Positions 4,767-47,214 of a DNA stretch of 64,000 nucleotides are shown here, one piece after another. This DNA is from Escherichia phage Av-05. The stretch's first letter is position 1; each line of letters begins with the position of its first letter. A program made the translations under genes and the position numbers. The DNA is taken from the sequence record KM190144; one strand, 5' to 3'. A model generated the notes under the pieces. It did not search any database. It had not been told where the DNA came from and was given only the letters and a program-made list of their open reading frames with translations.

Positions 4767-5079
4767 TATCCCGTTTCTCCAGAAACGCTTTCACCGCAAG
4801 AGCCGCAGCGTAAATTGCCACAAGACAAATACAAAATGTGAAAATAATAGGTAAAACCATTACCGCAAACATCATAAACAGTGGTCCTGCAACAGTAACG
4901 AATGCTGTTCCAAGCAACAATAGAAATACCACATATTTATCTGCCGTCTCATCCACCTTCTTAAGATACACACCTAAACACACAGAAGACAACAGGAATG
5001 ACAGAATGGACAGCAATAGATACCAATTATCAATAAAGATGATAATTGGACCAGCAACATTTTCTAGCCACCACATCAT
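4759..5079 (-). CDS. Membrane protein
   Basis: 106 aa, strongly hydrophobic. Confidence 0.4.
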   Translation of the reverse strand: MMWWLENVAGPIIIFIDNWYLLLSILSFLLSSVCLGVYLKKVDETADKYVVFLLLLGTAFVTVAGPLFMMFAVMVLPIIFTFCICLVAIYAAALAVKAFLEKRDND

Positions 5080-5093
5080 ATATACTTACCTCT

Positions 5094-6350
5094 TTAGAAT
5101 AACATATCTCTGCTGATTGCTTTACGAATAGCATCAATACGGGCTACTCGCACAGCCTCACCAATCTCTTTACCCTTCTTACCTTTTTCCAGAAGGGGTT
5201 TTGTTATAGCTTTAGAATCAACTTTTGTCATAGCGTCGTAGGCTTCCAACAAAATATGACCCTGAGGATAAGGTTTATGTCTAAAATCACCACCTCTCCC
5301 TTTAGCATCACAATAACACGCATCTGCAAGTGTGTAAACCTTTATTTTCTGATCAGCTTGTCCAGCAGCTTCAAATATTTTCATGATGCTTTTTGGTTTC
5401 AAACCGTTGTTACCATCTTTGGGGGAGATGGCGTGCACTTTTGTGTGATTTTCCGCAACATATTTTGCCGTGTCACGATAGATATTATAAATCTTCAACC
5501 TTTCACACAAGGATTGGATAACATCTACACCAGCTTTTTCATGACCATGAAGATTACCATTGTCCTTATGAGTCACAGCTTTGCCAAAATCATGGCACAG
5601 CACAGCAAACTTGGTCAGTGGATCAGCTCCTAATTCATCAGCAACCCGTAACGCTAGAATTGTATGGGTGTAAGCATCCCCTTCTGGGTGATGTTCTTTA
5701 GGTTGTTGCACACCACGTAGGGCTTCCAGTTCAGGGAGTTCGCCAATACGTCCCATATTGACAGCAAAAGATCTGAAATAACCACTCTTTAAGGCTTTCA
5801 ACATTTCCTTCCATTTACGCTCGGCGCTTATTTCTGCCAAAGAGTGTCGGTTGTCATAAGCCAGTTTAAAAGTTTCTGGATGGATATGCCATTCTTCCCC
5901 AAGCTGGGCTTTAAATCTAAACAGGCGTAGAATACGTAATGGATCTTCAATAAATGCCTGTGATGTATGACGTAATGTTTTAAGTCCTAAGTCAACCTGA
6001 CCACCAAAAGGATCTATAATTTCACCACTCTCAACATCCATCGCCATGGAATTGATGGTTAGGTCTCTACGTGCCAAATCCTCTTCCAGAGTTACATCTG
6101 GACTAAAGCATACCTCAAATCCTTTATGGCCTTCACCTGTTTTTCTTTCTGTGCGTGCAAGAGCGTACTCTTCTCTTGTTTCTGGGTGAAGATAAACTGG
6201 AAAAGATGCGCCAACTTGTGTGAACCCTCTTTTCAACATCTCTTCATGCGTAGCACCAACAACCACATAATCACGGTCTGATATTTCACGACCTAACAAT
6301 TTATCTCTTACTGCGCCACCTACCAAGTATACCTTCATTTCTTCGCCCAC
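5094..6350 (-). CDS. cca: tRNA nucleotidyltransferase (CCA-adding enzyme) with HD domain
   Basis: MKVYLVGGAVRDKLLG...DRD head motif, RRDLTINS, HD motif HHPEGDAYTHT...CHDFGK; probable ATG at 6338 (track GTG 6350). Confidence 0.8.
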   Translation of the reverse strand: MGEEMKVYLVGGAVRDKLLGREISDRDYVVVGATHEEMLKRGFTQVGASFPVYLHPETREEYALARTERKTGEGHKGFEVCFSPDVTLEEDLARRDLTINSMAMDVESGEIIDPFGGQVDLGLKTLRHTSQAFIEDPLRILRLFRFKAQLGEEWHIHPETFKLAYDNRHSLAEISAERKWKEMLKALKSGYFRSFAVNMGRIGELPELEALRGVQQPKEHHPEGDAYTHTILALRVADELGADPLTKFAVLCHDFGKAVTHKDNGNLHGHEKAGVDVIQSLCERLKIYNIYRDTAKYVAENHTKVHAISPKDGNNGLKPKSIMKIFEAAGQADQKIKVYTLADACYCDAKGRGGDFRHKPYPQGHILLEAYDAMTKVDSKAITKPLLEKGKKGKEIGEAVRVARIDAIRKAISRDMLF

Positions 6351-6661
6351 GTATTCATATAATTAACAATATCTTTTACGGCTCTCTTTCCGTCTAGTGG
6401 ATAAACTATGTCATCGCTCATCCCACCGTGTTTTAGCATTGCTACCAGTCTAGTATATACCTCTTTTGGTCTTTTGCAAGTTCTTTTCTTCCATTTATGA
6501 CCGTCTGGGGAGTACTCCTTATCTTCAAGAGAGATATGAAGTATATCCCCTATAAACTCTTTAGCCTGTGTGCTGTAAAGTGGACGGTGGAATATGTAGA
6601 ATTTCATTGCTTGCTCCTTTGTTGTAATAACAATATCAGTGCAAGCCACCTGTGTCAACAC
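6335..6661 (-). CDS. Hypothetical protein
   Basis: ORF in track; overlaps cca start (coupled). Confidence 0.4.
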   Translation of the reverse strand: MLTQVACTDIVITTKEQAMKFYIFHRPLYSTQAKEFIGDILHISLEDKEYSPDGHKWKKRTCKRPKEVYTRLVAMLKHGGMSDDIVYPLDGKRAVKDIVNYMNTWAKK

Positions 6662-6696
6662 ATAAAGAAAAACCCGCTAAAAAGCGGGTTAATCTC

Positions 6697-6978
6697 TTAC
6701 CATGTTACAAATATGTTTATAGATGTGCCTTGTTTTGTTGGTTGATAGCTAATAATATCTACCGTGAAGCCACCACCACGAAGATCGCCAACAATATGAG
6801 GCAGGTAATCACCCATTTCCTCCGGGAACTGTAGTGACATACCCATTCCAAATAGACCTTTCTTTGCACACTGGCTGATCCCGTTTACTATCTGGTCGTA
6901 CAGTTCCACCAGAGATTTTGGGGTGTCCTTTTTCGACTTGTTCGCTATCTCTCTCATTTTGCTGGCGACATTTGCCAT
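6697..6978 (-). CDS. Hypothetical protein
   Basis: 93 aa; AGAGG RBS before ATG 6978; in-frame TAA immediately upstream. Confidence 0.45.
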   Translation of the reverse strand: MANVASKMREIANKSKKDTPKSLVELYDQIVNGISQCAKKGLFGMGMSLQFPEEMGDYLPHIVGDLRGGGFTVDIISYQPTKQGTSINIFVTW

Positions 6979-7489
6979 CTTTACCTCTTAAAAAATAGAA
7001 AGGCTTCAAATTAAGGGTGTTCTTTTTGTCCCACACATACCATGCATACCCGCTTCCATCTGTCTTACCATCATCTGTAAAAGATGGTCTTTGAGAAAGT
7101 ACAAGCAGAGATGTTGGAGGATTATCTTGCCACCACTCCCACCTTTTCATACTTTCAAGAAAACCAAGGCGTAGAAGCATGATAACGACATCAGCGTCAC
7201 GTAGAGCTTTCTCAACAAATTCCTGAGCCAGTGAGTATGGAGGGTTAGAGATTATGATGTCTGTGTGATTATACTCTGTTGCCAGATAATCAACACCTTG
7301 ACGTATTTCTCCCCAAGCACTTCCGATTGGTAGAAAATTATAAATCCTACCGGAAGCCCTGCACGGCTCCATATATTTCTTTTTCATATCTATGGGGATG
7401 ACTTCCAACAGGGCTTCAACAGCCCATACTGGGGTTTCATACGTATCGTATTCTCTCCGCTCACTCTTCCTTTTCAGGGGCGCTACCAT
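6809..7489 (-). CDS. Dam-like DNA N6-adenine methyltransferase (small phage type); 3' end probably artefactually extended
   Basis: DIIISNPPYS catalytic motif; removing one T from the T6 run at 6990-6995 gives a 166-aa protein ending ...KPFYF directly before the RBS of the next gene. Confidence 0.6.
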   Translation of the reverse strand: MVAPLKRKSERREYDTYETPVWAVEALLEVIPIDMKKKYMEPCRASGRIYNFLPIGSAWGEIRQGVDYLATEYNHTDIIISNPPYSLAQEFVEKALRDADVVIMLLRLGFLESMKRWEWWQDNPPTSLLVLSQRPSFTDDGKTDGSGYAWYVWDKKNTLNLKPFYFLRGKDGKCRQQNERDSEQVEKGHPKISGGTVRPDSKRDQPVCKERSIWNGYVTTVPGGNG

Positions 7490-8415
7490 CAGTTATTCAC
7501 CTTTTCCATAGCCTCTTTCAAAAGATCTTCTGAGACACCAAGAATCTGATTTAACAAAACGTCCCGCTTATGTGGTATTGTGCGTGTTTCACTTTCACCA
7601 TATCGTAGGCTATTCAGTTGCACAAGGATTCCTTTTAACTCCTCAACATTAAAACCGTCAAAATCACGTTCATTGAGTGTTAGCATATTGAAACTGAAAT
7701 TTTCACCCCCAATCGCTATATTTAGAGGCACTTCCTGTAGTTCATCTTCAGAAACAATATCTATATTTTGCAGTGCTACACTCTTCGACTTTGCAGGTTT
7801 TGTCGTTTTCGGTCCTGTTATATACTTCAGCCCTTGTTGCTCTCTTCGGATATTCTCTTTATCCAGTAAAGCGGCTTCTGTGCGTACCAAAATATCTTCT
7901 TCTGTCAGCCAAACTTCCCCACCACCTTTAATGGTTTCCATTTCTTCAGGTGTTAGCACATCTTTATAGAAATAATCGAAGACACGATCAAAGTAGTCTT
8001 TTTGGAACACAGCTTGGCGGTAAATATTGGATCCGTCTCCACCTATCCAACCCTGGTAGTTATGGAACATAAAAATTGTCAATGGTGAAACAGTTCTCCG
8101 CTCACATGCCAACCATAATACTGTTCCTGCTGAACACACTTGGCCTTCTGCATGAACAATAACCATGGCCTGACTTTCTCTGATGGCGCTAACGTATGCC
8201 ATAGCAATAGCAACATCCCCACCCAATGTATTTATAATAATGCGTACCGTATCCTCTGGGTTGGCTGCACGAATTGTTTGTAACCGCTCTTGGTGGTCTT
8301 CCAACCAATGCATCTCGTTAACGTACACGACATGATTATTGGCATAGGCACGATATGTGAAAACATTAGAAGTCTCTACACGGTTAATATCAAATCCGTT
8401 ATTCAGTTTTTGCAT
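7489..8415 (-). CDS. ClpP-like (S14 family) serine peptidase
   Basis: INTLGGDV...GQVCSAGTVLWLA...MFHNYQGW matches ClpP core with Ser and His motifs; extra N- and C-terminal extensions. Confidence 0.5.
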   Translation of the reverse strand: MQKLNNGFDINRVETSNVFTYRAYANNHVVYVNEMHWLEDHQERLQTIRAANPEDTVRIIINTLGGDVAIAMAYVSAIRESQAMVIVHAEGQVCSAGTVLWLACERRTVSPLTIFMFHNYQGWIGGDGSNIYRQAVFQKDYFDRVFDYFYKDVLTPEEMETIKGGGEVWLTEEDILVRTEAALLDKENIRREQQGLKYITGPKTTKPAKSKSVALQNIDIVSEDELQEVPLNIAIGGENFSFNMLTLNERDFDGFNVEELKGILVQLNSLRYGESETRTIPHKRDVLLNQILGVSEDLLKEAMEKVNN

Positions 8416-8896
8416 TACAAACCTCTTCGTTTTTAATGAGGATACCCCTCAGAATGTGACTATTGCTCAAAAGCCAATCTATATTTATACCGCACTCCTC
8501 GTCAACAATAACTTTGTCACTATATCTGGAGCACCGGATAACTCTACGCGCATACTCAGCCGCTATAGCTGCTTGATGTATGATTGTAAATATGTCAAGT
8601 TCATCTTTAGTAAGATGAATGAACTTAGATTTACCATTCATGCAGATGAGATGCTCTAGCAGCTCAATTCTGTTAGAGAACATCAATTCGGCATCCTTCT
8701 TAGCAGCACTTTCAGAATAAAACATACTAGCTAAGAGGCTTTTATTAACAACTCTTAAAGAATTAGCTACCGTGGTCATATATCTGTTATAAAGCTCAGT
8801 AGCCATCTCTTCAAACACGTCAGGCTCTACAACACCACAATTCTGTAACTTTACCAAGGTATCGTTTGTTAAGACACTGTAGACAGTATTTTTCAT
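8399..8896 (-). CDS. Hypothetical protein
   Basis: ORF in track, 165 aa. Confidence 0.4.
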   Translation of the reverse strand: MKNTVYSVLTNDTLVKLQNCGVVEPDVFEEMATELYNRYMTTVANSLRVVNKSLLASMFYSESAAKKDAELMFSNRIELLEHLICMNGKSKFIHLTKDELDIFTIIHQAAIAAEYARRVIRCSRYSDKVIVDEECGINIDWLLSNSHILRGILIKNEEVCNAKTE

Positions 8897-8902
8897 TGTC
8901 CC

Positions 8903-9211
8903 CTACCTAGCAATTAGATATTGTATCTTTCCGTCATCTTCCTGATACCCAACATCTACAACATAGTATTCCCCAACATCAGGAATCAACAACTTATCCC
9001 CAACCTCGTACTCTTTTGCGGTATGGTATACCATTGATTCTGTAAAATATTTGTACTTATCCATATCGTTAATGTTGCATGAGATTTCCATTTCTCCGTT
9101 GTTGTTGGGTATGAGAATATCCTCACCATTCTTTTTCCCAACCACATAACCACCTACCAATGTTTTAACTAAGCACAGTGTTTTATTGAGTTTGTCTTGG
9201 AACTTTGGCAA
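8903..9211 (-). CDS. Hypothetical protein
   Basis: ORF in track, 102 aa. Confidence 0.4.
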   Translation of the reverse strand: MPKFQDKLNKTLCLVKTLVGGYVVGKKNGEDILIPNNNGEMEISCNINDMDKYKYFTESMVYHTAKEYEVGDKLLIPDVGEYYVVDVGYQEDDGKIQYLIAR

Positions 9212-9728
9212 AAGAATCCTCCATTTTGTCCAGGAATGTTTCCAGGAGTTTTATTCTTTCTGGTGTGTTAAGATTAAGTGTTTTAATCCCTTTCATCTTA
9301 GCAAGATTGACAGCAGTAGCCGTGCCGCCTCTTGGATTGCCATTCTTATCTTCTTTTGCAAAGTAGAGCACAAAGGAAGATGGCTTTGGGTTGTTAATAT
9401 TCACTCCCAACACTTGATGCACATTCCTAGAATGCAACGCAAATGCTGATCTGTTTCTCAACAATGCTTGTGGGTTTGGATGCACCTTTTGCACCAACTC
9501 ATCTCGATATTCTATTTGGTCGATATATAGATGGTTAATATATTGTAAGGCATAATCCCAGTTATCGTACAAACCCACTTCTTTATCACCAAAACCTTTC
9601 CATGGTATGTAGATTTCTGCGAGTCTGTTACCATACAACATTTTGGTTTTATCGTCAAGGCCATCGAAATATCGCTGCATCCCTCTCTGGAACGCTGCAT
9701 CGGCTCCTTCTGCCTTACCGCTCCGCAA
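9183..9728 (-). CDS. Hypothetical protein
   Basis: TTG start; weak DprA/SLOG-like resemblance (GKAEGADAA, RNRSA) not relied on. Confidence 0.35.
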   Translation of the reverse strand: MRSGKAEGADAAFQRGMQRYFDGLDDKTKMLYGNRLAEIYIPWKGFGDKEVGLYDNWDYALQYINHLYIDQIEYRDELVQKVHPNPQALLRNRSAFALHSRNVHQVLGVNINNPKPSSFVLYFAKEDKNGNPRGGTATAVNLAKMKGIKTLNLNTPERIKLLETFLDKMEDSFAKVPRQTQ

Positions 9729-9762
9729 TGTAAACCCTATTTTTTTTTCAAGGAGTTAAGCA

Positions 9763-11013
9763 ATGACAGCAACAACAGGTGTTGGTGGTTTAATTTATGG
9801 TCGTGCATTGGTTGATCAGAGGACAGGAAAGAAAATAAATTTTGATGAACTGGGCGGCGGGAATATTCCAGAAGACATAACAGATCTTATTGCATCTAAA
9901 GCCCCAATAGAAAGCCCTTCATTTACAGGAAACCCCCAAGCACCAACACCGTTGGATGATGCTATTGGAAAGGAAATAGCTAATGTAGAATATGTGAGGG
10001 GTTTAATTGCAAAATTGGCTGACTCAGCGCCTGAAACATTAGATACTCTCAATGAATTAGCGAAGGCATTAGGTGATGACCCTAACTTTGCGACAACCAT
10101 AACTAACGCTCTTGCTGGTAAACAACCATTGAGTGAAATACTGACATCTTTGTCAGGATTGATTACTGCCGGAAATAAACTAGCTTATTTCAGTGACAAA
10201 AACGTAATGGCTTTGGCAAATCTCTCCGCTGTTGGTCGAGTTATTATAGGGCAAGACTCAAAAACTGGGGTTCTTGATTATCTGGGGATAAAAACCGCCG
10301 CTACAAAAGATGTACAAAACGATATCTATGATGCCACCGATGGGGTAGTATCTTTGCCTGGTGCATTTGGTTTTGGGGCGTTTATCCCTGCCGAGAAAGA
10401 AGTTGTTTTTCAAGAGAAGAATGGGCCAGAGGAATGGGTTTCTTGGTTGAGAAGTGCACAACCTGGTCGTTACCTTGTTCGCCAAGATTTACCTTCAGGT
10501 GGTATACGTATTATTGAAGGGATCACATTTAGAGGTATGGTTGAGGTATTGTCCCTATTTCCAGCGGAGAGTGCGGAACAGGCATCTAAAAATAACAAAT
10601 ATGCTTATTTTTATGGTATAAATGGGGAGTTATACTCTTATCGCTTACTGACTATTTTTGCCAGTGGTGACTGGGTGAATATAAAAGGACAATTCTCTTC
10701 TTTACAGTCTACGGTAGACAATTCATGGGGGAGTCCTGATGTTGGAGGAATAATGTTAGGAGTGTATCTTGGCGCTTCGGACACTGATTCAAACAGAAAA
10801 CTTGTTCGTGGTCAGACTATCCCAGGATCCCGCATAGGGTGTATAACTCTTTACAGCAATGTTTCCGCAACAGGTGCATATCAAAGTACACCAGTTTCTG
10901 TTACACACAGTAATGAAACACAGAGAGGCACGTTTGTAGCCTTATCTGGCTCACCAAGCAACAGCGGTGGTACAGCCACAGGTTACATAGGTCTTTTTAT
11001 GAGGATTGCATAA
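9763..11013 (+). CDS. Tail fibre protein
   Basis: SPSFTGNPQAPTP tail-fibre anchor motif; AAGGAG RBS; N-terminus MTATTGVGGLIYGRALVD. Confidence 0.6.
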   Translation: MTATTGVGGLIYGRALVDQRTGKKINFDELGGGNIPEDITDLIASKAPIESPSFTGNPQAPTPLDDAIGKEIANVEYVRGLIAKLADSAPETLDTLNELAKALGDDPNFATTITNALAGKQPLSEILTSLSGLITAGNKLAYFSDKNVMALANLSAVGRVIIGQDSKTGVLDYLGIKTAATKDVQNDIYDATDGVVSLPGAFGFGAFIPAEKEVVFQEKNGPEEWVSWLRSAQPGRYLVRQDLPSGGIRIIEGITFRGMVEVLSLFPAESAEQASKNNKYAYFYGINGELYSYRLLTIFASGDWVNIKGQFSSLQSTVDNSWGSPDVGGIMLGVYLGASDTDSNRKLVRGQTIPGSRIGCITLYSNVSATGAYQSTPVSVTHSNETQRGTFVALSGSPSNSGGTATGYIGLFMRIA

Positions 11014-11582
11014 TGCTGGATATTAAAGATATTAAGTCCCCGCAGTATCTTCTTAATGGTGACGTTGATTGCCTCGTCCTTTTTGAGGGTTTCTCTGATT
11101 ATCTCCCATACACCGCTTCCAGTAACGACTGTAGCGAAACAGGAAAGGCAGTTTGGGATTCCTTACAATCTGGTAATTTTGGGGAGATTGCCCCGTATGT
11201 AGTAAACCCTCAATTTATCGAGGCATTAAAGCAACAGATGTTATCAGAAATAAAAGAGTGGAGAAAACTGGAAGAAAGCTCTACGGCTATTGTTTCTTAT
11301 AATGGTGCAAGGTATGATGTTGATAATGCAACCCTTGGTCGTATTTATCCAGTATTATTAGCACAAAAAGCATCCCCAGCCAGACAAGCTGTGGTTTGGA
11401 GAGATGTTGATAACAAACCTGTAGAGATGAGTAGCTCTGAATTTGAAAATCTTGTTGTAGCTATGTCTTCCGAGTTGGCAACTAAGAATGATTCAATATA
11501 CATCAAGCAACGAGAAATGAAAGATCAAGTGCTTTCAGCCTCTACGATTGAGGAATTACAAAGGATAAAAATTGGGTGGTAG
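11013..11582 (+). CDS. Putative tail fibre assembly/accessory protein
   Basis: Start overlaps fibre stop (ATGA); position between fibre genes. Confidence 0.3.
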   Translation: MLDIKDIKSPQYLLNGDVDCLVLFEGFSDYLPYTASSNDCSETGKAVWDSLQSGNFGEIAPYVVNPQFIEALKQQMLSEIKEWRKLEESSTAIVSYNGARYDVDNATLGRIYPVLLAQKASPARQAVVWRDVDNKPVEMSSSEFENLVVAMSSELATKNDSIYIKQREMKDQVLSASTIEELQRIKIGW

Positions 11583-13222
11583 CTATGGATTATAAGGATA
11601 AAGTTGTCAATGCTGAAGTCATACTTCCAGATGGGCATAGTATTGGAGGATCAGGACTCCCAAGCCAATCTTTTAAATTATACACAGAAGACACCGCGAC
11701 CATAAAACTTTCAGGTAATGGTGAAAAAGCAACACCACTTAAAGGTGTTGTTGTGGTGGCAGAAGATGAAAATAATGCTCTCCAAGCTGGAGATAATGGG
11801 TTAGCTGTTAAGGTGAGTCCTGCTGCAAATAACCTGCTGGAGTTGAAGCAAGGAGCATTATATGTAACAGCACCAGAGATAAATATTCCAATTTCTCCTA
11901 AAGAAGGAAACGCTTTAACAAATATAACCTCTGAAGGGGAAGAGGGGTTGTATGTTGCGCCTACCAAAGTGCAAGGATGGCTTTATGATTCTGCACCTGG
12001 TGTTGCAGCTTTGCCTGGCGCTTTCGGCTACGGAATGACAGATCCTGGAGCAATTTCACTTATTGCTAACAGTCTTGGCGATGTTGCACGTTCTGCCCAT
12101 AACCTACACCCAGGAAGGTATTATACTTTCACCACACGATCTGAGGAAATGACCGGAATAACAGAAATTATCTGGTTGGATAATGGCTGGGGCAACAAAA
12201 CCAGTCAGACAGCAACAAAGCTGGTTCTGTTTTTTGGAAAAGACGGTCGTATGAAGTATACAATCCGTGGCGACAATCTAAGCGATCCGGCAGTGTGGTA
12301 TGATTTGTTAACTACTAAGCAAACAGATATCTATGATCGTACAGAAGGTGTTGTCGCCATACCTGGCATGTTTGGATTCGGTAGTGATTTCGTCGGTATT
12401 GATACTGTCTATTTTAACAACAAAGCGGAGTTCCTTACTTGGGTGCATAATACTCGTTCTGGTCGTTATCTGGTGAGCCAGATATATGGTAGCGAGCCTA
12501 TCATTAACAGCAATGTTACGTTTAGCGGTATTCTTGAGGTTATCCCAACTGGTAGTGTTGGCGTTGGTTACGAGGAGAATTTACCTAACGTATGGAAAAA
12601 CCTTATTTTTTACGGCGCTAATTACGGCGATATCTGGTACACACGTTTTACCACACAACCGAATAACTTGTCTGGTTGGAGGTGCTTAGATAAGACAACG
12701 GATATAATCAATTTGCAGAACTCGCTTAATAGAAAAGCTCCATTGTACAACCCTAATTTCTCTGGTACACCAACAGTACCTACACCAAGCGATTCAGCAT
12801 CAGGAACCCAGATTGCCAACGTAGATTTTGTTAAAAAACAGGTATCTAATAACACTTACACACTGTCTGCTGGCACGGTTACTGTTTTAGATAGTGGATC
12901 ACAACCTACTATTGAGATAACTGGTCAATCACCATCACAGGTTTTAAATTTGGGAATACCAAAAGCACCTGATGGACAAACAATAAAATCTGTCAATGCT
13001 GTTGTTAAAGAAATAGACAGCGCACAACAGGTTACACTAACTTTTACAATGACAGATGATTCAAGTCAACAGGCGAGCTTTAATATCCCGTTTTCTCCTC
13101 AGCCGACTATGAAGCTGTCAGCAACATCTGGGAATTTCTCTTTCAATTATGGCGATACACCTTCAGCGGAAAAACGCAGCGGGAAGATCTGGGTCTTCTA
13201 TATATTTGAAAACAACAGTTGA
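11576..13222 (+). CDS. Tail fibre protein, N-terminal part (frame-shifted relative to 13149-13553)
   Basis: PNFSGTPTVPTPSDSASGTQIANVDFV fibre motif; stop at 13220 inside overlap with next frame. Confidence 0.55.
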   Translation: MVAMDYKDKVVNAEVILPDGHSIGGSGLPSQSFKLYTEDTATIKLSGNGEKATPLKGVVVVAEDENNALQAGDNGLAVKVSPAANNLLELKQGALYVTAPEINIPISPKEGNALTNITSEGEEGLYVAPTKVQGWLYDSAPGVAALPGAFGYGMTDPGAISLIANSLGDVARSAHNLHPGRYYTFTTRSEEMTGITEIIWLDNGWGNKTSQTATKLVLFFGKDGRMKYTIRGDNLSDPAVWYDLLTTKQTDIYDRTEGVVAIPGMFGFGSDFVGIDTVYFNNKAEFLTWVHNTRSGRYLVSQIYGSEPIINSNVTFSGILEVIPTGSVGVGYEENLPNVWKNLIFYGANYGDIWYTRFTTQPNNLSGWRCLDKTTDIINLQNSLNRKAPLYNPNFSGTPTVPTPSDSASGTQIANVDFVKKQVSNNTYTLSAGTVTVLDSGSQPTIEITGQSPSQVLNLGIPKAPDGQTIKSVNAVVKEIDSAQQVTLTFTMTDDSSQQASFNIPFSPQPTMKLSATSGNFSFNYGDTPSAEKRSGKIWVFYIFENNS

Positions 13223-13553
13223 TCTGAACAGAGCACCTGCTGGCAGTACAGATGTTATGGTGGATGTTCGTTTGACAGAGATACCTTGTACGGAAGACGG
13301 TACGTATCTTGATTATGATATCTATGCAGAATACCCAAGTGTTGTCGGGTCAGGGCAACCCACAGTGGCTGTATGGCTTATTCTGCCAACAGTTCCCACG
13401 CATACCATTGATCCCAAGACGAAGATAATAACTAAACTTCTTCGCGGAGACGGTGGCTTATCAGGACTTAATGGAGTCATTCCTATTGCAGGTGCAGACG
13501 AACAAGTCCACGAGTTTAAATATTTCTTGCAATATTCTTATCTAAACAACTAA
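13149..13553 (+). CDS. Tail fibre C-terminal part (+1 frame continuation, no RBS)
   Basis: No Shine-Dalgarno before ATG 13149; frame is +1 to upstream ORF; A5 run at 13170-13174 in overlap. Confidence 0.4.
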   Translation: MAIHLQRKNAAGRSGSSIYLKTTVDLNRAPAGSTDVMVDVRLTEIPCTEDGTYLDYDIYAEYPSVVGSGQPTVAVWLILPTVPTHTIDPKTKIITKLLRGDGGLSGLNGVIPIAGADEQVHEFKYFLQYSYLNN

Positions 13554-19289: not shown

Positions 19290-21671
19290 ATGGCGAATAT
19301 CATAGTAACTAAAACCGTAAATACTGTCGAGTGGTCTGTAGATCGCACCAGTTACGGTCGTGCAATGAAAGCTATAAAATCCCTGAAGAAGGAATGGGAA
19401 AAGACTAACAGAGCTTTCACTTCTAATAAAAGTAATCCGGCAGCAATTTATAAACGTTCTGCACAAGAGGCTCGTCTTGTAGCTAAAAGATTACACCAAA
19501 CTGAACGTGCAGAGCAAGCAAAATCTACGGCACATGCTATTGCAATGGCAAAAAAGGAAGCTCGTGCTCGTGAACAAATAGCTAAAGTTGAGAGCGCGAG
19601 AAGAAAGCAAGCAGTAGCCAGACTAACAAACAGAAGAACACCCGAAGAACAAAAAGAATATAATGCATTAAAATCAAAGTTGAAGCAGATGGAAAAAACA
19701 GGTTCTGGGTATGGGACAAATCCAGAAATATCTGCTGCCCGTCAAGCAAGATTGCAGCAAGAACTTGCAGCAAGGAAGTCTTCAGGATCTGCCTCTGGTA
19801 TTGTTGGGGATCCTAATAGTCGCCACGACCCAAGTCTTGTGGCTGCTCAGAACTCTGCTATGGAACGCTATCATAAATCTATCCCGAAAGAAAAAACAGC
19901 GGATGAGATTAAGGCAGAAAAAGATGCTAATAAGAAGAAAGAAAGAGAAGCGTTAAGAGCAGAAAGAATAAAGGCTGCAAAACAATCAACGATTGCTAAT
20001 GCTGCTGTAAGACTTCGTGCTAAGTATGGTGATGATTTCAGATCTAAAATTAAAGGTTATGATGATCTGGAAAAGAGATTTATGCAAAGCCAGACTATGA
20101 GAGCTTCTAATTTCCGTGCTGAATTGGCAGCAATGGAAACAGGACTCCGCAAAGCTAAGGCAAATACACTATCTCTTGATCAAGGATTGAAGAACCTTCG
20201 TAGCACATTAATTAGTGTTTCTGCTGCATACGGGGCTTTTAATGCTGCCGCAAGTGTTGTGAAAACAGGGCAATTCTTTCAAGGCATGGAAGCTACCATG
20301 TTAATGGTTTCTGATGACTCAGAAGAAGCTGCGAAAAGAATGCAGTTTGTTCGGGAGCAATCTTACAGATTGGGTTTGGATTTAAAAACCGCCGCTCAAG
20401 GTTATACCCAAATGGCTATCTCTGCTAACGGTGTTTTGAGCAAGGCGCAAAATGACGAACTGTTCAAAGGCCTCTCAGAATATGCTACTGCACTTCAGGT
20501 TGATCCTGTAAAATACCAGCGTGGTATCACTGCTATCCAACAAATGATGGGTAAAGGTCAGATCATGGCTGAGGAGTTAAAATCACAACTTTCCGAAGGT
20601 ATTCCAGGTTCTCTTAATGTATTCCTTAAAGCCACACAAGAAGCATTCAATGATTCATCTATAGACATTGCAAAATTAATGGATATGATGAAGAATGGAG
20701 AGCTAAAGGCTTCAAAAATTCTTCCTTTGGTTGCTAAGTATTATGCCGAGGCCGCAAGAAAAGGTGGTGCACTTACCAAGGCACAACAAAGCAACCGTGT
20801 TGCTATGCAGCGTTTACAACAAACGTGGATGAACTTTCAGAATCAAATATTTGAAAGTGGTTTTGGTGAAGCCTTGACAGACACGTTTAACAATCTGGCA
20901 AAAGCCTTGGATAGTAATGGGGAATTGGCACGTAACATAGGACAGATAACAAAAGGTTTTGTTGAAGGCTTTATGTGGGTATTCTACCAAATATATAATA
21001 TCTTTATAGATATTGACGGGATTTTGCAGAGATATATCCCAATTTTCAGAAGAAATGGTGATGAATTAGGGAAGGCTTGGGAATGGACAGGAATGGCTAT
21101 AGGAGCTTTGTTCTTCGCCACTTCGCTAGGTAGAGTTTTCACTATCTTATCTAAAATCGCAGGACTTTCGAAGTCTCTCAAATTTTTGAAAACACTTGGT
21201 GGTGGGGTAGCTACGCCAACCGCTCCAAGCAAAGGCCCGTGGGGGGGAGGTGGATCTGGAAAAGGATCATTTCCGTTTTTCTTAAATCCCTATGCTGCTG
21301 CAACAGTTTGGGGTTTGGATTATGCGGTCTCCACTGATAGTGAGAAAGATGATAAAAAGCGGCAGCTTGGTAATGCCTATTCCTATGGTAGTGGTGACTT
21401 CATGGCTGTGGTTGGAGGGATGTTAACAAACTGGTGGTCATCCCTGTGGGCTGGGCATATGCAGGATAAAGCTAACTATCTCCAATCCCATAATCTAATG
21501 CCTGGTGGTTCGACGGGTCAAACTGTAGCCCCTATGGTCATTCCTACCGAGCCTGTCAGTGGTGAAATAACCATTAAAATAGATGCTGGTGAATTACGCA
21601 ATATGATTGATCAGCAAATAGAGACAGCCAATATGGATAACATTAATCTTATTCTCGCTGTCCCTCAATAA
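19290..21671 (+). CDS. Tail tape measure protein
   Basis: 793 aa, long A/K/E/R-rich coiled-coil N-half, hydrophobic and Gly-rich segments (GGGVATPTAPSKGPWGGGGSGKG). Confidence 0.7.
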   Translation: MANIIVTKTVNTVEWSVDRTSYGRAMKAIKSLKKEWEKTNRAFTSNKSNPAAIYKRSAQEARLVAKRLHQTERAEQAKSTAHAIAMAKKEARAREQIAKVESARRKQAVARLTNRRTPEEQKEYNALKSKLKQMEKTGSGYGTNPEISAARQARLQQELAARKSSGSASGIVGDPNSRHDPSLVAAQNSAMERYHKSIPKEKTADEIKAEKDANKKKEREALRAERIKAAKQSTIANAAVRLRAKYGDDFRSKIKGYDDLEKRFMQSQTMRASNFRAELAAMETGLRKAKANTLSLDQGLKNLRSTLISVSAAYGAFNAAASVVKTGQFFQGMEATMLMVSDDSEEAAKRMQFVREQSYRLGLDLKTAAQGYTQMAISANGVLSKAQNDELFKGLSEYATALQVDPVKYQRGITAIQQMMGKGQIMAEELKSQLSEGIPGSLNVFLKATQEAFNDSSIDIAKLMDMMKNGELKASKILPLVAKYYAEAARKGGALTKAQQSNRVAMQRLQQTWMNFQNQIFESGFGEALTDTFNNLAKALDSNGELARNIGQITKGFVEGFMWVFYQIYNIFIDIDGILQRYIPIFRRNGDELGKAWEWTGMAIGALFFATSLGRVFTILSKIAGLSKSLKFLKTLGGGVATPTAPSKGPWGGGGSGKGSFPFFLNPYAAATVWGLDYAVSTDSEKDDKKRQLGNAYSYGSGDFMAVVGGMLTNWWSSLWAGHMQDKANYLQSHNLMPGGSTGQTVAPMVIPTEPVSGEITIKIDAGELRNMIDQQIETANMDNINLILAVPQ

Positions 21672-21675
21672 TTTG

Positions 21676-21700
21676 AAGGGGCTTTTGCCCCTTTTATTGT
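21676..21700 (+). terminator. Rho-independent terminator
   Basis: AAGGGGC-TTTT-GCCCCTT hairpin followed by TTATTGTTTT. Confidence 0.55.
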
Positions 21701-21751
21701 TTTAATAAAAGATTTATGATAAAATCATACAAGAACAAGTGAGGGTTTTTC

Positions 21752-22624
21752 ATGGCTTCAGTTTCTAATAACCAGTCAAAACCACAGCAAGGGAAGGCCA
21801 CGGCAAATGTTGAAAGAAAAGTAAACAATGCGCAGGATACAAGTGCTGGCGTTAAGTATACACTTTTTGCTAGTGGTCTTAATTATGGTGGTCGTAATAT
21901 TGAGTTAAAAGACAAAAATTATACAGATGATCTGGCAATAATTTTCGATGTTGTCGAGGAACACACCTATACAAGAGAAGTGGATAAAACATCTTACGCA
22001 GTTGAAGATAGGGTTAAATTCAGCGACCACGGTGTAATAAAAGATGGGAAATTCTCTTTTAGCGCAAGGGTTAGCTCATCACCACTCTCAATTATTCAGT
22101 TTAACTACATAGATAAAGATACTGATAATAAAAACCCTGCTGCATCAAAAAGACCAGAAAAAGCCCTAGAGATTCTTGAACGTCTTATAGACCAACGACA
22201 AATTGTAACTCTTGTGACAGAGGATAGAATCTTAGATAATTACATCCTCACTTCAATGGAAGCATCACGTAGTAATTCTGATGGTGCGGCATTAGTTTTT
22301 CAATTAGAGTTTACAGAGTTCCGTACATTTACATTGGGAAAGACCATCTTAGCCACCATCTATACAGACGCTAAAAAAACAGGAAAGACAAAGCAAAAAG
22401 GGGCTGTTCAATCTTCGGCTAACCAAGAAGAGTTAGATGTTACAGCTATGAGAACACGGTATATAGGGCCGGATGCTGAGAACAGGCAGAAAATGGCAGA
22501 CGCGAGAGGGTATGGCAATTTTACGAAACATGACACCAAAGTTGGCACATTATCTCCAGATGGGAAATTAAGAGATTTAGAAGGTAATATCACAGATTAT
22601 GATAGCCTAGTGGGGAAAAATTAA
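21752..22624 (+). CDS. Baseplate/tail protein (putative)
   Basis: 290 aa, first gene after tape measure. Confidence 0.35.
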   Translation: MASVSNNQSKPQQGKATANVERKVNNAQDTSAGVKYTLFASGLNYGGRNIELKDKNYTDDLAIIFDVVEEHTYTREVDKTSYAVEDRVKFSDHGVIKDGKFSFSARVSSSPLSIIQFNYIDKDTDNKNPAASKRPEKALEILERLIDQRQIVTLVTEDRILDNYILTSMEASRSNSDGAALVFQLEFTEFRTFTLGKTILATIYTDAKKTGKTKQKGAVQSSANQEELDVTAMRTRYIGPDAENRQKMADARGYGNFTKHDTKVGTLSPDGKLRDLEGNITDYDSLVGKN

Positions 22625-22971
22625 TGAAAGTTACATTTTCGTGGGATATTGATGGATTTGCCGACCAAACAATGAGAGTCGTTTTGGACAGCAGGACTTA
22701 TGAAATGAGATTCCAATGGAATGAGAGAGATGAATCTTGGTTGGTATATTTTGGGGATGTTGGTTCAGAACCTACGGTGTCCTTCAAATTAACAACAATA
22801 TTCGATATACTGGAACCTTTTAAGTATATGGAAAACATTCCTAATGGTGTTTTGAGTGTTTGGTCATTCAGTTCATCTACAAAACGTGTTGGAAGGTACA
22901 ATATCGGATTTCTTGCAGATCTCCAACTTCTTTATTCATCTCCTGATGAGGAGTTAACAGGTGAGGAGTAA
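22624..22971 (+). CDS. Baseplate assembly protein (putative)
   Basis: 115 aa, ATGA-coupled to previous gene. Confidence 0.35.
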   Translation: MKVTFSWDIDGFADQTMRVVLDSRTYEMRFQWNERDESWLVYFGDVGSEPTVSFKLTTIFDILEPFKYMENIPNGVLSVWSFSSSTKRVGRYNIGFLADLQLLYSSPDEELTGEE

Positions 22972-22976
22972 TAATT

Positions 22977-23975
22977 ATGCCATCTTACAGAACAAGAACA
23001 TATAAACTAACAATAGGCAAACCAGTATATATCGGAGAAAAGCCTACAAATATTTCCGATTATACAAATAAAAACAGTAAAGATGCTTATGTTGTAAGTA
23101 ATGAGTACGGTTCTGCAAATATAGAATTTGAAGTTAAAAAAGATAACTCGAAAGACCCCAACAAAGGTTACGTAACAATTTACAATTTGAGTGATGAAAC
23201 AGTTAGCTATTTAGATGCTAACCAGAGAGAATCTATAGCCATAGTGTTGGAGGCTGGGTTTGATGGTGAAAACCAAATGTTATTCTCTGGGACAGTAGAG
23301 TTTGTTCAGGATAAATGGGATGGAAATACCCGCCAAACAAAGATGATCCTTGGTGATGCAACCACAAATATTATGACTGCTAAAACAGCAAGATCATATA
23401 AAAAAGGAACACCTTTAGATACTGTTCTTAATGATTTGATTTCCGATTTAAAATTACCTATCGGAAAAGTTGTTAAATTCGGGAATAGGACTCTTCAACA
23501 ATCAATGGCATTCACAGGGAATGCTGCTAATAATCTTGAGAGATTAGCCAGAAATACAGGTTCCACATTTAGTGTCCAGGATGGCGCTGTGTACTGGACA
23601 ACACAAGGTAAAAGATTTAAGAACGCTGTTTTTGAAATAAGCGCAGAATCTGGGATGCATGATTCTCCAACCCCACAGAATCCAGAACCTGCTAAAAGAA
23701 GACTTGAGAAAGAAAGCAAAAAGAAAAAAAGGAAACCTAAACCTGGCACGGATACAAGACCAAGTAGAGCAAGAATAAAAGAAGACGCTGGGTTGGTTGT
23801 AACCACAGAGCTTAATGGGGCAATTATTCCTGAGAGCACAATTTATTTGAAGAGTCATAAATATACAGGTTTCTATAAAGTAGTATATTTGACACACAAA
23901 GGGCAACTTGAAGGTGGAGATTGGATTTCCGAAATTGGCCTTGCTGAAGCCCGTGGTGGTGTTGTGGAGGAATAA
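22977..23975 (+). CDS. Baseplate hub protein (putative, gpD/late-control-D-like)
   Basis: 332 aa, position upstream of spike; internal Lys-rich linker. Confidence 0.35.
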   Translation: MPSYRTRTYKLTIGKPVYIGEKPTNISDYTNKNSKDAYVVSNEYGSANIEFEVKKDNSKDPNKGYVTIYNLSDETVSYLDANQRESIAIVLEAGFDGENQMLFSGTVEFVQDKWDGNTRQTKMILGDATTNIMTAKTARSYKKGTPLDTVLNDLISDLKLPIGKVVKFGNRTLQQSMAFTGNAANNLERLARNTGSTFSVQDGAVYWTTQGKRFKNAVFEISAESGMHDSPTPQNPEPAKRRLEKESKKKKRKPKPGTDTRPSRARIKEDAGLVVTTELNGAIIPESTIYLKSHKYTGFYKVVYLTHKGQLEGGDWISEIGLAEARGGVVEE

Positions 23976-24676
23976 TGGCAGCAATTCAAAGAATGGACGC
24001 AGCATTGAATCAGTGGTTTGCGAGACAAGCCAGAGACATCCATACAGGATTAAGGGCGAAGGTTGTTGAGGTTGATTATAGCATACCCTCAGCAACTGTA
24101 CAACCTTTAGCATCCACCAATTTCGATGACGGAACAGTAGATGCATATCCTGCTGTTTTCGATGTGCCGCTTTCGATGCCAAGCGCAAACGGCGGTAAGG
24201 CAAGACTTACATTGCCTGTTAAACCCGGTGATATTGTCGGGTTATCTTTTTCAGAGAGAAATGAGTCAGATGCTAATGACTTAACGACACACGGTTTATT
24301 TCCTGGGTGGTCAATCATTGGTGTTCACAGTGATGGGAATGCAATGGTTATCGACCCAAACAATGTGGAATTATGGAACGATCAAGTTCATTTCTCTCTT
24401 GCCCCTGAAGGAGATTTTGTATTAAAAGGCCCAGTGGGAACATTTACTGTTGATAAAGATGGCAAAATGTCTTTTACCAACGGGTCTGCGACATTGACAG
24501 CGAAGCCTGATGGGAATATAGAGATGAATGGGGCGAAGGTGACACCAGATGGGAATATTGTGACAGCTAGAGGTGTGAATTTAAATGATTTCTACGACTG
24601 GTTTGCAAGGCACACACACCACTATGTTTGGACAGACCCATCTGGTGAAAGTGACACAAATGTCCCTAACAAATAA
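23975..24676 (+). CDS. Baseplate central spike (putative)
   Basis: 233 aa; C-terminal HTHHY (HxH-like tip motif). Confidence 0.4.
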   Translation: MAAIQRMDAALNQWFARQARDIHTGLRAKVVEVDYSIPSATVQPLASTNFDDGTVDAYPAVFDVPLSMPSANGGKARLTLPVKPGDIVGLSFSERNESDANDLTTHGLFPGWSIIGVHSDGNAMVIDPNNVELWNDQVHFSLAPEGDFVLKGPVGTFTVDKDGKMSFTNGSATLTAKPDGNIEMNGAKVTPDGNIVTARGVNLNDFYDWFARHTHHYVWTDPSGESDTNVPNK

Positions 24677-25216: not shown

Positions 25217-25245
25217 AAAGGGGCATAAGCCCCTTTATTTGTGTT
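25217..25245 (+). terminator. Rho-independent terminator
   Basis: AGGGGC-ATAA-GCCCCT hairpin then TTATTTGTGTTT. Confidence 0.5.
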
Positions 25246-25318
25246 TACTATTTATAATTAAGACATATTGTGGTAAAATAACCACATCTTATAATAATTT
25301 ACAAGAGGAGGCATAATC

Positions 25319-25633
25319 GTGGCTGCTCAATTTGGATTAAATGACTACGGTTTTTCAATTCCGTCCCTTGATGACTTGATAACAGATACCAAGCAATCCC
25401 TTATTAGAGCTTTTGGTGAAAACTTTAACACCCAAACTAACTCCGTTGTTGATAAGATCACTACTATTTTCAACGAAAGGGAATATCAATTAATTCTTTT
25501 GGCTGCATCTATTTATGCAGCACAAACGTTAGCAGGGGCAGAAGGTATATATCTTGACGAGATTCTTGGTCGTCGTGGGATATTCCGTAGAGGAAAAACC
25601 AAAGGGTCCGGTACTGGTTCAAATGGTAATTAA
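25319..25633 (+). CDS. Baseplate J-like protein, N-terminal part (frame-shifted)
   Basis: N-terminus of baseplate J-type protein; stop at 25631 inside overlap with next frame. Confidence 0.45.
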   Translation: MAAQFGLNDYGFSIPSLDDLITDTKQSLIRAFGENFNTQTNSVVDKITTIFNEREYQLILLAASIYAAQTLAGAEGIYLDEILGRRGIFRRGKTKGSGTGSNGN

Positions 25634-26813
25634 TAACACAGTGCCGTATAATATGATTTATGATGCCGCAACATACAGTATTGACGGTGGGAATTTTGTG
25701 TTAACAGAAGATACTGCCGTTGCTGGTAATATCATAGCGCAGCAAATAACCAATCAGGATTGGGTTCTTGGTAACTACACCATCCAGATAGTTAACCAGA
25801 ATGATGGGACAACAAAGACACTGAACCTATCTCTGAAAAACAAAACCCCAAACAGCACCGAATTAAACTCTTTTATGATGGCTATGAAAGAGTTTATAGT
25901 CGATAATACAACTTATCTGAACGAAGATAAGATCTTTATCGAATCTTCTTCAGGAAGTATGTTTATAGGTTATGATCAAAATAAGAAAATGATTGGTCTT
26001 AATGCTCCTGTTGACTTTAGAACATCACCCCTGCTTGGTCAAAGAACAATAACCATGGATGTTATTGCTGTTGAAGCAGGAGAAATATCTAGAGAAGCAG
26101 AGACAGTTACCAACATAAGCCCGACACCAAGTGGTTTTGTTAGCTTGACGAACAGGGAAGCATTTAGTGATGGTACAGATGTTGAGACGGATACAGAATA
26201 TAAGCTGAGGGCTTCGAGCACCACATCAACAGGTGCTGCCGCAACACGGCCAGCTATTGTTTCTGCTGTTTTAAATGTGCCTGGTGTAAGTAAGGTTAAA
26301 ATTTTCTCCAACAATACTGGTGTGACAAACGAGTACGGTGTTCCAGCGTATAAGTTTGAGACAGTAGTCTATGGTGGGGCCACAGAAGATATCAGTAAGG
26401 CACTTTATAATACCATAGCACTCTCTAATGCTACTTATGGTGATGTATTCTATGATGTGACTACAGAAGATGACCAAGTAGAAAGAATTTATCATAGCAA
26501 GGCAAAAGTAAGGCAACTTGAAATTCGTGTCAGATATAAAGGTAAATTACTATCCCTTACAGAACAGAACACGATCAGGGATTCCCTTAAAGCTGTTGTT
26601 GATCCTCTTAACATTGCAGATACGTTGTACAATATCCAACTTGTTTCTGCTGTGGGGTCATCCATCTCATCAGGTAGATTTACTCAACTTTTAGTAGATG
26701 TCAAAAACAAAGGTGAACCAGACAGTACGTATACTAATGATGATATTGTTGCTACTATGACAGAAGTTTTCGCTGTAGAGTTAAATGACATAACTTTCCA
26801 GCAAGTTCTTTAA
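25554..26813 (+). CDS. Baseplate J-like protein, C-terminal part (+1 frame continuation)
   Basis: 419 aa in +1 frame; A5 run at 25594-25598 in the overlap. Confidence 0.45.
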   Translation: MTRFLVVVGYSVEEKPKGPVLVQMVINNTVPYNMIYDAATYSIDGGNFVLTEDTAVAGNIIAQQITNQDWVLGNYTIQIVNQNDGTTKTLNLSLKNKTPNSTELNSFMMAMKEFIVDNTTYLNEDKIFIESSSGSMFIGYDQNKKMIGLNAPVDFRTSPLLGQRTITMDVIAVEAGEISREAETVTNISPTPSGFVSLTNREAFSDGTDVETDTEYKLRASSTTSTGAAATRPAIVSAVLNVPGVSKVKIFSNNTGVTNEYGVPAYKFETVVYGGATEDISKALYNTIALSNATYGDVFYDVTTEDDQVERIYHSKAKVRQLEIRVRYKGKLLSLTEQNTIRDSLKAVVDPLNIADTLYNIQLVSAVGSSISSGRFTQLLVDVKNKGEPDSTYTNDDIVATMTEVFAVELNDITFQQVL

Positions 26814-45461: not shown

Positions 45462-46100
45462 TTACTCTGATATAGGGTCTGTTTTTGATCTTCTTTTCTG
45501 GACTTTCTTGGGTCTTCCTGTGATATGTGACCATGAGTATCCATTATTTAAAGAAGATATTGTATTTCTGGAAACTCCGAATAGTTCCGCAATAGCTTTG
45601 TGTGTTATCCCACAATCAATAAGCCGTACAATCTCTAAAACTTTCTCCTTTGTAAGGACAGATAAATGATAATCATCACCAAATTTTTGGATTCTCCCCA
45701 TACTATAAGCCACTGTATTGTTATGGCTATAGGTACACCACTCAAGATTTTCAACTCTATTATTATGTCTGTTACCATCTATGTGGTTTATAATTGGAAC
45801 TCCTAGCACAGTTTTTCTGCATTCTTTCTGCAATTCTGGAGAAGGAGGCTCTTTAAAAGCCTCCGCTACAAGTCTATGGACTGAAAAACTTTTCCCTGAA
45901 TCTTTACCCCTTTTGTACAAGCACACGCTCGGATAGCATTGTGGAGATAAATTTTCACTTTTAGTTTTTAAATATTTCCACATTCCTGATTTAAAAGATC
46001 TTACATTTCCATAATTACTTACTTGATAATCAGGATACCCTACAATATCCTTCCAAATTTCCTCTACTTCATCAGTGGGAATCTGCCCATGTGTATCCAC
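45462..46100 (-). CDS. Free-standing HNH homing endonuclease (NUMOD4-like N-terminus)
   Basis: GYPDYQVSNYGNVRS motif and NHIDGNRHNNRVENLEW HNH motif; GTG start overlaps 3' end of polymerase exon 3. Confidence 0.65.
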   Translation of the reverse strand: MDTHGQIPTDEVEEIWKDIVGYPDYQVSNYGNVRSFKSGMWKYLKTKSENLSPQCYPSVCLYKRGKDSGKSFSVHRLVAEAFKEPPSPELQKECRKTVLGVPIINHIDGNRHNNRVENLEWCTYSHNNTVAYSMGRIQKFGDDYHLSVLTKEKVLEIVRLIDCGITHKAIAELFGVSRNTISSLNNGYSWSHITGRPKKVQKRRSKTDPISE

Positions 46101-46371
46101 AAAGATATTCTCCTGTAATTAAAACGGGAAGCCCCATTATCTTAGACGCTTTTTCTACACATTTTGTTGCAAGCTCTCCTACTGGGCAATGCAGTATCCT
46201 GTATTTCCCATACACATCAGGTTCAACAATAACTTTACCTGCTTTCACATAATGTCCGTCGAAACGATGGCCTTTTTCAAGCATCATATCTACATAGCTT
46301 TGTGCAGCCTCTAAGTTAGAATGCTCCGTTATTGATTTAAATCTTTCCGGTACTTGTACCTGTATCTCATC
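46072..46371 (-). CDS. DNA polymerase (family A), exon 3
   Basis: Begins DEIQV (completes motif C as ...YYH|DEIQV) and ends GLPVLITGEYLCGYTWADSH, like Pol I/T7 pol C-terminus. Confidence 0.6.
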   Translation of the reverse strand, partial: DEIQVQVPERFKSITEHSNLEAAQSYVDMMLEKGHRFDGHYVKAGKVIVEPDVYGKYRILHCPVGELATKCVEKASKIMGLPVLITGEYLCGYTWADSH

Positions 46372-47214
46372 CACTAGTTCAAGGAGTTCGCTACTCTCCC
46401 CCGCACCGTTACGTGCATAGCCACAAGATTTCTCCTGTGGGTCAGACTATATCATAACCCTTTTTCAAGGGTTCCTCCCGTTTGGACCGCGCTTGCTGGC
46501 CTACTCTACTCGCTTCTTCACATCAGATGAAGCTGATGCTATGCTTTCGATAGTCGTTGAACGTCACTTACCAAGTATAGTCTTTAGAGATATGCACCCA
46601 CAATCTCCGTTGTTTAATTCCTTTTACGGATGGGTAGGGGTATCCGAGATCTCTAATCTCGCATTGCCTTAGCCCTGACTGTAGCAATTCACAAATCTCT
46701 CTCACATCTTTTTCTGTGAGAATGGCATTCGCATTGTTTTCACCAATAGGTATAACACGTAATCCTGTATCGTAAGCATGTTTTATATTGCTGCCATGTG
46801 TCCCCCACTCAAGATTCCACGCTGCGTTATTAAGTTTGTTTCCATCTTTATGATTAACGCTGGTGAATCTTTCTGGATCTGGATTAGGCACAAAACATTC
46901 TGCCACCATCCGATGTATGGCTTTCGTACAGGACTTACCGTCTATCCTTATAATTGTACACAGATATCCCCTCCCATTATCAAATACCTGCAAGGGAAGT
47001 TTATCTCTTTTTGAAAGAGGCGTGGAACCATCTTCAAAAACTGTATACCCATGGTAATCTTTTGCTTTTACCATTTTACTATACCTCTTTAAGTTTTCGC
47101 TGCGGATTGGCATATTGTCCTTATAACACAATACATTATAAGAATCAACTTAGCTTTCCCGACAATTAGAGAGGTTTTCGACATGCATTACTGCATGAAG
47201 CCACAATGTTATTT
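46372..47214 (-). mobile_element. Group-I-intron-like insertion 2 in DNA polymerase gene, with HNH ORF
   Basis: Splits motif C; minus strand has R-like GTTCAACGACTA and S-like ATGATATAGTC elements; 5' exon ends U, insertion ends G. Confidence 0.55.
46568..47131 (-). CDS. Intron-encoded HNH homing endonuclease
   Basis: VNHKDGNKLNNAAWNLEWGTHGSN HNH motif; 187 aa inside insertion 2. Confidence 0.65.
   Translation of the reverse strand: MCYKDNMPIRSENLKRYSKMVKAKDYHGYTVFEDGSTPLSKRDKLPLQVFDNGRGYLCTIIRIDGKSCTKAIHRMVAECFVPNPDPERFTSVNHKDGNKLNNAAWNLEWGTHGSNIKHAYDTGLRVIPIGENNANAILTEKDVREICELLQSGLRQCEIRDLGYPYPSVKGIKQRRLWVHISKDYTW

Follow-up and report, generated by a model that had tools for sequence, protein, structure and literature searches.

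Positions 25319-26813 of the 64,000-nucleotide window studied here, which belongs to the genome deposited for Escherichia phage Av-05 (GenBank KM190144; Vequintavirinae, genus Avunavirus; assembly dated 2014), constitute one gene, coding for a Baseplate_J-like baseplate wedge 2 protein with a native length of 497 amino acids. Its split into two open reading frames is caused by the insertion of a single G which is specific to Av-05 and which is very probably an artefact of sequencing or assembly. The lesion is found at another site than the one suggested by the homopolymer runs of the region.

The two reading frames and the wedge 2 gene

The two open reading frames which the original prediction had described are both present on the + strand. 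ORF A (25319-25633) starts with GTG and encodes 104 residues, namely residues 1-99 of the native protein followed by the out-of-frame tail GSNGN and a stop. ORF B (25554-26813) starts with TTG, encodes 419 residues and lies in the +1 frame relative to ORF A; the part of this frame which forms the remainder of the wedge 2 gene extends from 25618 to 26813 on the + strand and corresponds to native residues 100-497. In the Av-05 annotation ORF A is listed as AII27639.1, “putative baseplate component”, and the 3' part as AII27640.1, a protein of 396 residues which is read from the ATG at 25623. In tblastn, residues 1-99 of the orthologous protein of Escherichia phage vB_EcoM_TH18 (TH18) align with 25319-25615 at 100% identity and residues 93-497 align with 25596-26810 at 97.5% protein identity. 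Both ORFs match the PHROG 6 family “baseplate wedge subunit”, ORF A over profile positions 61-154 (E = 4.6e-15) and ORF B over positions 188-407 (E = 7.5e-28). Since they match successive parts of one family, the split is real in the deposited sequence and the two ORFs do not form a chance pair. ORF B scores 38.9 bits against Pfam PF04865 Baseplate_J and the intact TH18 orthologue 49.4 bits (cut-off 21.1), which, together with the PHROG 6 matches, confirms the earlier assignment to a gene of the baseplate-J type. One continuous ORF is not found in the window, as the gene is split after codon 99.

The gene is part of a baseplate module. Its upstream neighbour is a 175-residue gene assigned to PF10934 Sheath_initiator, its downstream neighbour a 225-residue gene named DUF2612 or baseplate protein, and the latter is followed by a 687-residue protein with the tailspike-type Pfam domains PF23844 NCTSP_N and PF23845 TIM-barrel_NCTSP. 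The intergenic region upstream of the wedge 2 gene (25217-25316) contains a terminator-like hairpin at 25217-25236, followed by a T-rich tail, as well as a promoter-like site at 25251-25279, and a strong predicted ribosome binding site (AAGAGGAGG) precedes the GTG start. An Rfam match to STnc400 which overlaps this region reaches 28 bits, below the gathering score of 80; the terminator hairpin is probably responsible for it.

The closest structural match is Wedge 2 of phage phiTE (PDB 9CUY chain T; E = 9.2e-172), which aligns over chain residues 1-493 with residues 1-496 of the query. The phiTE protein, whose structure was solved by cryo-EM, is one chain and continuous across the site of the break, its GKTRSTGTVVM corresponding to GKTKGSGTVQM. 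The repaired 497-residue protein also aligns end to end with phi92 gp145 (E = 3e-59), and weaker matches comprise Pam3 gp22 and other Baseplate_J wedge or triplex proteins. The Av-05 wedge 2 protein is an orthologue of phiTE Wedge 2 and of PVP-SE1 gp047; it belongs to an ordinary kind of baseplate wedge protein which has already been structurally characterised. The trifurcation unit of phiTE, like the helical bundle which contacts the sheath initiator, is built from wedge 1 together with two copies of wedge 2 (PMC11972413), which places wedge 2 among the core structural components of the baseplate wedge. In an AlphaFold model (pLDDT 86) helices are predicted for residues 17-32, 43-72 and 77-85 and the first strand of the next beta domain for residues 97-104. 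The model thus places the break at a domain boundary, just past the N-terminal helical domain and within this first beta strand. A myovirus whose baseplate is devoid of a wedge protein should not form plaques.

Position of the frame break

The original prediction had located the frame break in the A5 run at 25594-25598, which is part of GGAAAAAC (25592-25599, + strand) and is indeed present in the overlap of the two ORFs. Alignment with intact relatives shows that this element is not involved and places the extra base at the GG dinucleotide 25616-25617 (+ strand), where the window contains one G more than its relatives (ACTG[G]TTC; in extended context ACTG[G]TTCAAATGG), 18 nt downstream of A5. 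In a three-way alignment of the window, TH18 and PVP-SE1 the window reads ACTGGTTCAAATGG compared to ACT-GTTCAAATGG, and TH18 does not differ from the window in the A5 of GGAAAAAC. Comparison of the whole window with TH18 reveals the same isolated 1-nt insertion at 25617 with otherwise identical flanks. As a result of it, the frame shifts after Thr99.

Removal of the extra G leads to a protein of 497 residues (...RRGKTKGSGTVQMVINN...) which is collinear with every homologue. The junction supported by the homologues is ...GIFRRGKTKGSGTVQMV..., and the tryptic peptide expected at this junction of an intact wedge 2 protein begins GSGTVQMVINNTVPYNM. In contrast, the fused protein proposed earlier, given as ...GIFRRGKPKGPVLVQMV... 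and ...GKPKGPVLVQMV... with about 510 residues, is wrong over six residues and the true length is 497. Repair by deletion of an A yields ...RRGKPKGPVLVQMV... and thereby changes TKGSGT to PKGPVL. Gly98, which is invariant in an alignment of 51 sequences down to 31% identity, is kept if the G is removed and lost if an A is removed. A5 was discarded as a slippage site since intact relatives carry it and since repair at this position destroys the invariant Gly98. A frame break mended at the nearest homopolymer can hence be wrong, homologue alignment moving the lesion in the present case by 18 nt with a change of six residues.

The suggestion that a heptamer shared between frame breaks leaves slippage open does not hold either. 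GGAAAAAC is the same in 14 close relatives inspected, 13 of which possess an intact gene while one, contig L006, carries a different lesion (see below). The A5 varies in one further relative, L008, which reads GGAAAAGC (AAAAG), GGAAAAGCC replacing GGAAAAACC. GGAAAAAC occurs five times in the window compared to 3.5 expected occurrences, a number reached by 25 of 100 shuffles, and its copy at 13168 is merely a by-product of a G inserted there, as TH18 reads GCGAAAAAC at this site. With no enrichment and one copy thus explained, we rejected the heptamer as a common cause; its occurrence at the frame breaks is a coincidence. Nor do the breaks of the window lie at A/T homopolymers, as had been assumed, for the bases added at 13169 and 25617 are each a G beside a G and the one at 54661 is a C beside a C. 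What stands of the original prediction is its preference for an indel error over biology, not the lesion which it proposed: instead of an extra A in A5 we find an inserted G in ACTG[G]TT.

A quasi-palindrome with an 8-bp stem, CGGTACTG...CAGTGCCG (25609-25646, + strand), carries the extra G in its left arm, at the inner end. PVP-SE1 lacks the complementarity and the hairpin is absent there, for which reason the quasi-palindrome is probably not a functional element; it probably represents an error- or mutation-prone context. In L006 (Logan SRR14663239_1575), a 2.1-kb contig of an independent relative with about 97% identity, taken from an unrelated low-coverage assembly, the 37-nt segment CGGTACTG...CAGTGCCG is exactly inverted at positions 1727-1763. 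The left edge of this inversion coincides with the position of the extra G in Av-05, and the inversion results in an ORF of 105 residues which ends in GSGTVLLITI. We considered the 105-residue protein (P0109) as a second split at the same point and rejected it as the lesion is a different one, an exact inversion of 37 nt; L006 does not reveal any shared, conserved split. A pure canonical-k-mer artefact of de Bruijn assembly was also dismissed, by the reasoning that 31-mers reaching at least 4 nt into the flanks need real inverted reads. Either a genuine template-switch variant or a chimera in the library could account for the inversion. The inversion suggests that the hairpin is fragile, whether in vitro, where library molecules may become chimeric, or in vivo, where template switching may occur.

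Relatives and further interrupted genes

The wedge 2 region is 97% identical to TH18 and three sister records and about 74% identical to PVP-SE1-type phages. In TH18 as well as in PVP-SE1 the gene is a single ORF of 1494 nt encoding 497 residues. Ten independent contigs with an identical upstream gene, taken from ENA and Logan metagenome assemblies and including one NCBI record, all contain the 497-residue ORF and all read ACTGTTC. This motif is present in TH18, in nine further independent ENA, Logan and NCBI contigs and in one metagenome contig, while ACTGGTTC is present in the window only. Three further GenBank relatives match a query of 2001 nt over 2000 nt, and in contig L015, which is 98.1% identical over 8528 nt, the inserted G is the sole gap. 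By exact-sequence look-up the 104-residue and the 396-residue fragment are each found on one contig only, which is that of Av-05. Exact-pattern scans of viral, genome and metagenome contigs which allowed either state did not retrieve a second example of the G insertion, as neither viral nor genome contigs gave any match and the one copy from metagenome contigs is intact.

At the protein level, 104 of the 106 homologues with E<=1e-10 have a length of 486-500 residues. The two short ones are a 274-residue fragment on a 1.5-kb contig and the 396-residue annotation of Salmonella phage SPLA5a. The latter was rejected as a second split since its DNA (OR413583, L005 301-1794) harbours an intact ORF of 497 codons with a GTG start, like that of its relatives; the annotation begins at an internal ATG, a start-codon choice which mimics the split of Av-05. 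Among 15 listed members of the 90% cluster of the larger fragment (71 members) 13 have 497 residues, and the other two are the 396-residue fragment of Av-05 itself and a partial protein of 112 residues on a 338-bp contig. The frame break is thus encountered in none of 14 close contigs or records, one metagenome contig and the 104 homologues of 486-500 residues. Downstream of the break the Av-05 sequence exhibits no further stop or decay, and at 97.5% protein identity to TH18 its constraint is not relaxed. The original prediction had named a confirmed A5 together with homologues split at the same point as the finding which would speak against an error. A5 is the true state, but the homologues are not split, which favours error: the lesion is private to one record, with near-identical independent sequences being intact.

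According to the announcement of the Av-05 genome, the phage most similar to it in DNA sequence (97%) is RB69 (PMC4463512); close matches of the window are confined to Vequintavirinae (TH18 group 97%, PVP-SE1 types 74%). Proteins of this phage group are recorded under WP_ accessions as belonging to “Escherichia coli”, and assemblies of E. coli isolates contain them on contigs of 50-138 kb, dozens to hundreds in number, e.g. JZOQ01000142 (L019). Such contigs imply that Avunavirus-like lytic phages are often co-sequenced with E. coli cultures, through a carrier state or contamination.

When all CDS of TH18 were compared with the window by tblastn, exactly three genes turned out to be interrupted by a frame change. 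All three breaks are 1-nt insertions private to Av-05 which duplicate a neighbouring base and which are absent from the four GenBank relatives, and they lie within about 54 kb of alignable sequence. The second insertion (CAGCG[G]AAAAAC, 13168-13169, + strand) splits the homologue of a 593-residue protein of the tail-fibre region into ORFs at 11576-13222 and 13149-13553; this gene is intact in TH18, OK136180 and the E. coli assembly contig JZOQ01000142. The third insertion, a C on the + strand and accordingly a G on the coding strand (54661-54662, - strand), is accompanied by an adjacent substitution and truncates a protein of 108 residues to 89 (ORF 54394-54663). The 89-residue fragment is named “DNA ligase” in Av-05, and within the 24-member 90% cluster of the 108-residue protein all 14 other listed members have 108 residues. 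The record which contains the split wedge 2 gene hence contains further lesions of the same type, amounting to three 1-nt insertions in all.

Genes annotated in pieces are also seen in TH18 (21354-24484 and 63775-67488), where two CDS are recorded for the DNA polymerase and three for the terminase large subunit, and an HNH homing endonuclease lies between them. This arrangement suggests interruptions of the intron or intein type in this phage group. The HNH protein of TH18 has two weak matches in the window at 45519-46969 (region about 46000-50900).

Origin of the inserted base and comparison with known systems

The published sequence of Av-05, a strongly lytic phage purified from plaques, is a de novo assembly, made in Geneious R7, of 36-base Illumina GAIIx reads with a coverage of about 100x (PMC4463512). 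For the Illumina GA it has been reported that inverted repeats cause lagging-strand dephasing and that, of the miscalls which this produces, 49-64% repeat the base before them (PMC3141275). An error in base calling or in the consensus of such a de novo assembly of 36-nt reads is the most likely origin of a spurious G at 25616/25617. The inverted repeat would trigger lagging dephasing, a lagged read would resemble a duplicated base followed by shifted sequence, and gapped de novo assembly of 36-mers could turn lagged reads into an inserted column. The DNA of the real phage would then not contain the base, and its wedge protein would be an ordinary one of full length. True indels are a rare outcome of Illumina chemistry, and a consensus insertion at about 100x needs a systematic cause; the cause put forward here is only hypothesised. 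When a common sequence cause was sought at the three insertion sites, a clear inverted repeat was found at 25617 only and none at 13169 or 54661, so that dephasing as a mechanism behind every one of the insertions is not established.

The overall shape of the Av-05 record provides further signs of a weak assembly. With 120,938 bp, compared to 131-138 kb for the longest contigs of relatives, the genome is short (about 13 kb shorter than that of TH18), and synteny breaks at about 9735-9765, as 1-9739 of the window corresponds to TH18 98,407-107,833 while the sequence from 9740 onwards corresponds to TH18 58,383 downwards. The first part, comprising a tRNA nucleotidyltransferase and a Dam methylase region, is joined to a tail-fibre gene at about 9740. 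TH18, OK136180 and JZOQ01000142 do not share this break, the capsid module preceding a 416-residue gene in all three of them. The junction may possibly be a misassembly or a real rearrangement. If the insertions are artefacts, the RefSeq proteins YP_009111170 and YP_009111171 of this type phage of Avunavirus are fragments of one 497-residue wedge protein, and at least two other Av-05 genes in the window are also broken by single-base insertions, so that the finding would be of corrective value. Given such fragmentary genes the Av-05 record should not serve as evidence for split genes, recoding or differences in gene content.

We consider it unlikely that the G is genuine and reflects a very recent mutation in the sequenced stock, either in a defective variant which dominated the DNA preparation or in a phage with a working two-piece wedge protein. 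In the latter case ORF A would supply residues 1-99 plus GSNGN, and termination-reinitiation at ATG 25623 would supply residues 102-497. The deposited sequence does carry the G, the break falls, according to the model with a pLDDT of 86, at a domain boundary behind the N-terminal helical domain, and as ATG 25623 still lies within ORF A, 6 nt upstream of its stop, reinitiation could in principle give the 396-residue piece, so that a real split might still express both pieces. In addition, the different lesion of L006, a 37-nt inversion in an independent assembly, affects the same quasi-palindrome; it suggests real instability and could mark the site as a real mutational hot spot, which would count against an artefact. 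However, the G occurs in no other sequence among about 15 close relatives, about 100 homologues and the listed members of the 90% cluster with its 71 proteins, and three independent frameshifts would have to be tolerated by one plaque-purified phage within the same 64 kb, which is improbable. Moreover, ATG 25623 is not preceded by a Shine-Dalgarno sequence, the split would cut a predicted beta strand, and constraint on the downstream sequence is not relaxed.

In its most far-reaching form, that of a real G in a viable myovirus whose wedge 2 consists of an 11-kDa N-terminal helical bundle and a 43-kDa body assembling non-covalently in the baseplate, or of a quasi-palindrome acting as a template-switch hot spot, the proposal is very unlikely. 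In the latter reading the quasi-palindrome at 25609-25646 would be a natural hot spot of template switching which repeatedly damages the wedge 2 gene, and L006 points in the same direction. A real base would make wedge 2 a rare functional split structural protein; no evidence obtained here favours that.

That ACTGGTTC is real and the frame is restored by programmed recoding, namely by a +1 ribosomal frameshift within the overlap 25533-25633 or by slippage of RNA polymerase at A5 with loss of one A, is extremely unlikely, as the frame break is conserved in no relative, even at 98% identity. There is an overlap of 100 nt in which a +1 shift would join both frames, a hairpin can form over the site, and GGAAAAAC recurs at another frame break of the window. 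Yet this latter copy, at 13168, is made by the insertion itself, the hairpin is absent in PVP-SE1, and the fold of 25585-25720 is unexceptional (z = -1.06, 31 of 200 shuffles being as good). An Rfam scan gave no match above the gathering score. +1 sites of the prfB type combine a shift-prone P-site codon with a slow A-site codon, i.e. a stop or a rare one. Unlike prfB with CUU UGA, the codons ACU GGU UCA of Av-05 offer neither +1 re-pairing in the P-site nor a stop or rare codon in the A-site. Efficient transcriptional slippage takes place on homopolymer runs of about 7-9 nt or more, well above A5, and in Av-05 the real break is found 18 nt downstream of the run. The run is present in intact relatives, reads AAAAG in one of them, and loss of an A would turn TKGSGT into PKGPVL, including the invariant Gly98.

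Compared to E. coli prfB-type +1 frameshifting and to transcriptional slippage, Av-05 shares the feature of overlapping 0 and +1 ORFs which encode one protein. It differs from the former in that the break is not conserved and is devoid of a shift-prone codon pair, a stop or a rare codon, and from the latter in that its homopolymer comprises 5 nt and does not coincide with the position at which the Av-05 frames depart from the homologues. The dephasing described by Nakamura et al. 2011 (PMC3141275) concerns the same instrument family, and the Av-05 site resembles it by lying in an inverted repeat and by an extra base which repeats the preceding one, although the published cases are runs of miscalls in reads and not consensus insertions. 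The repaired Av-05 protein, finally, is homologous over its full length to phiTE Wedge 2, phi92 gp145 and PVP-SE1 gp047. The orthologues of TH18 and of the Logan contigs are 97-99% identical to it and those of the PVP-SE1 type about 78%, and its gene is embedded in the same baseplate module, with a sheath initiator upstream and a 225-residue DUF2612/wedge-1-like gene downstream. The difference lies in the extra G which cuts the deposited Av-05 gene after codon 99, whereas, with the exception of L006, the members of the family are elsewhere single ORFs.
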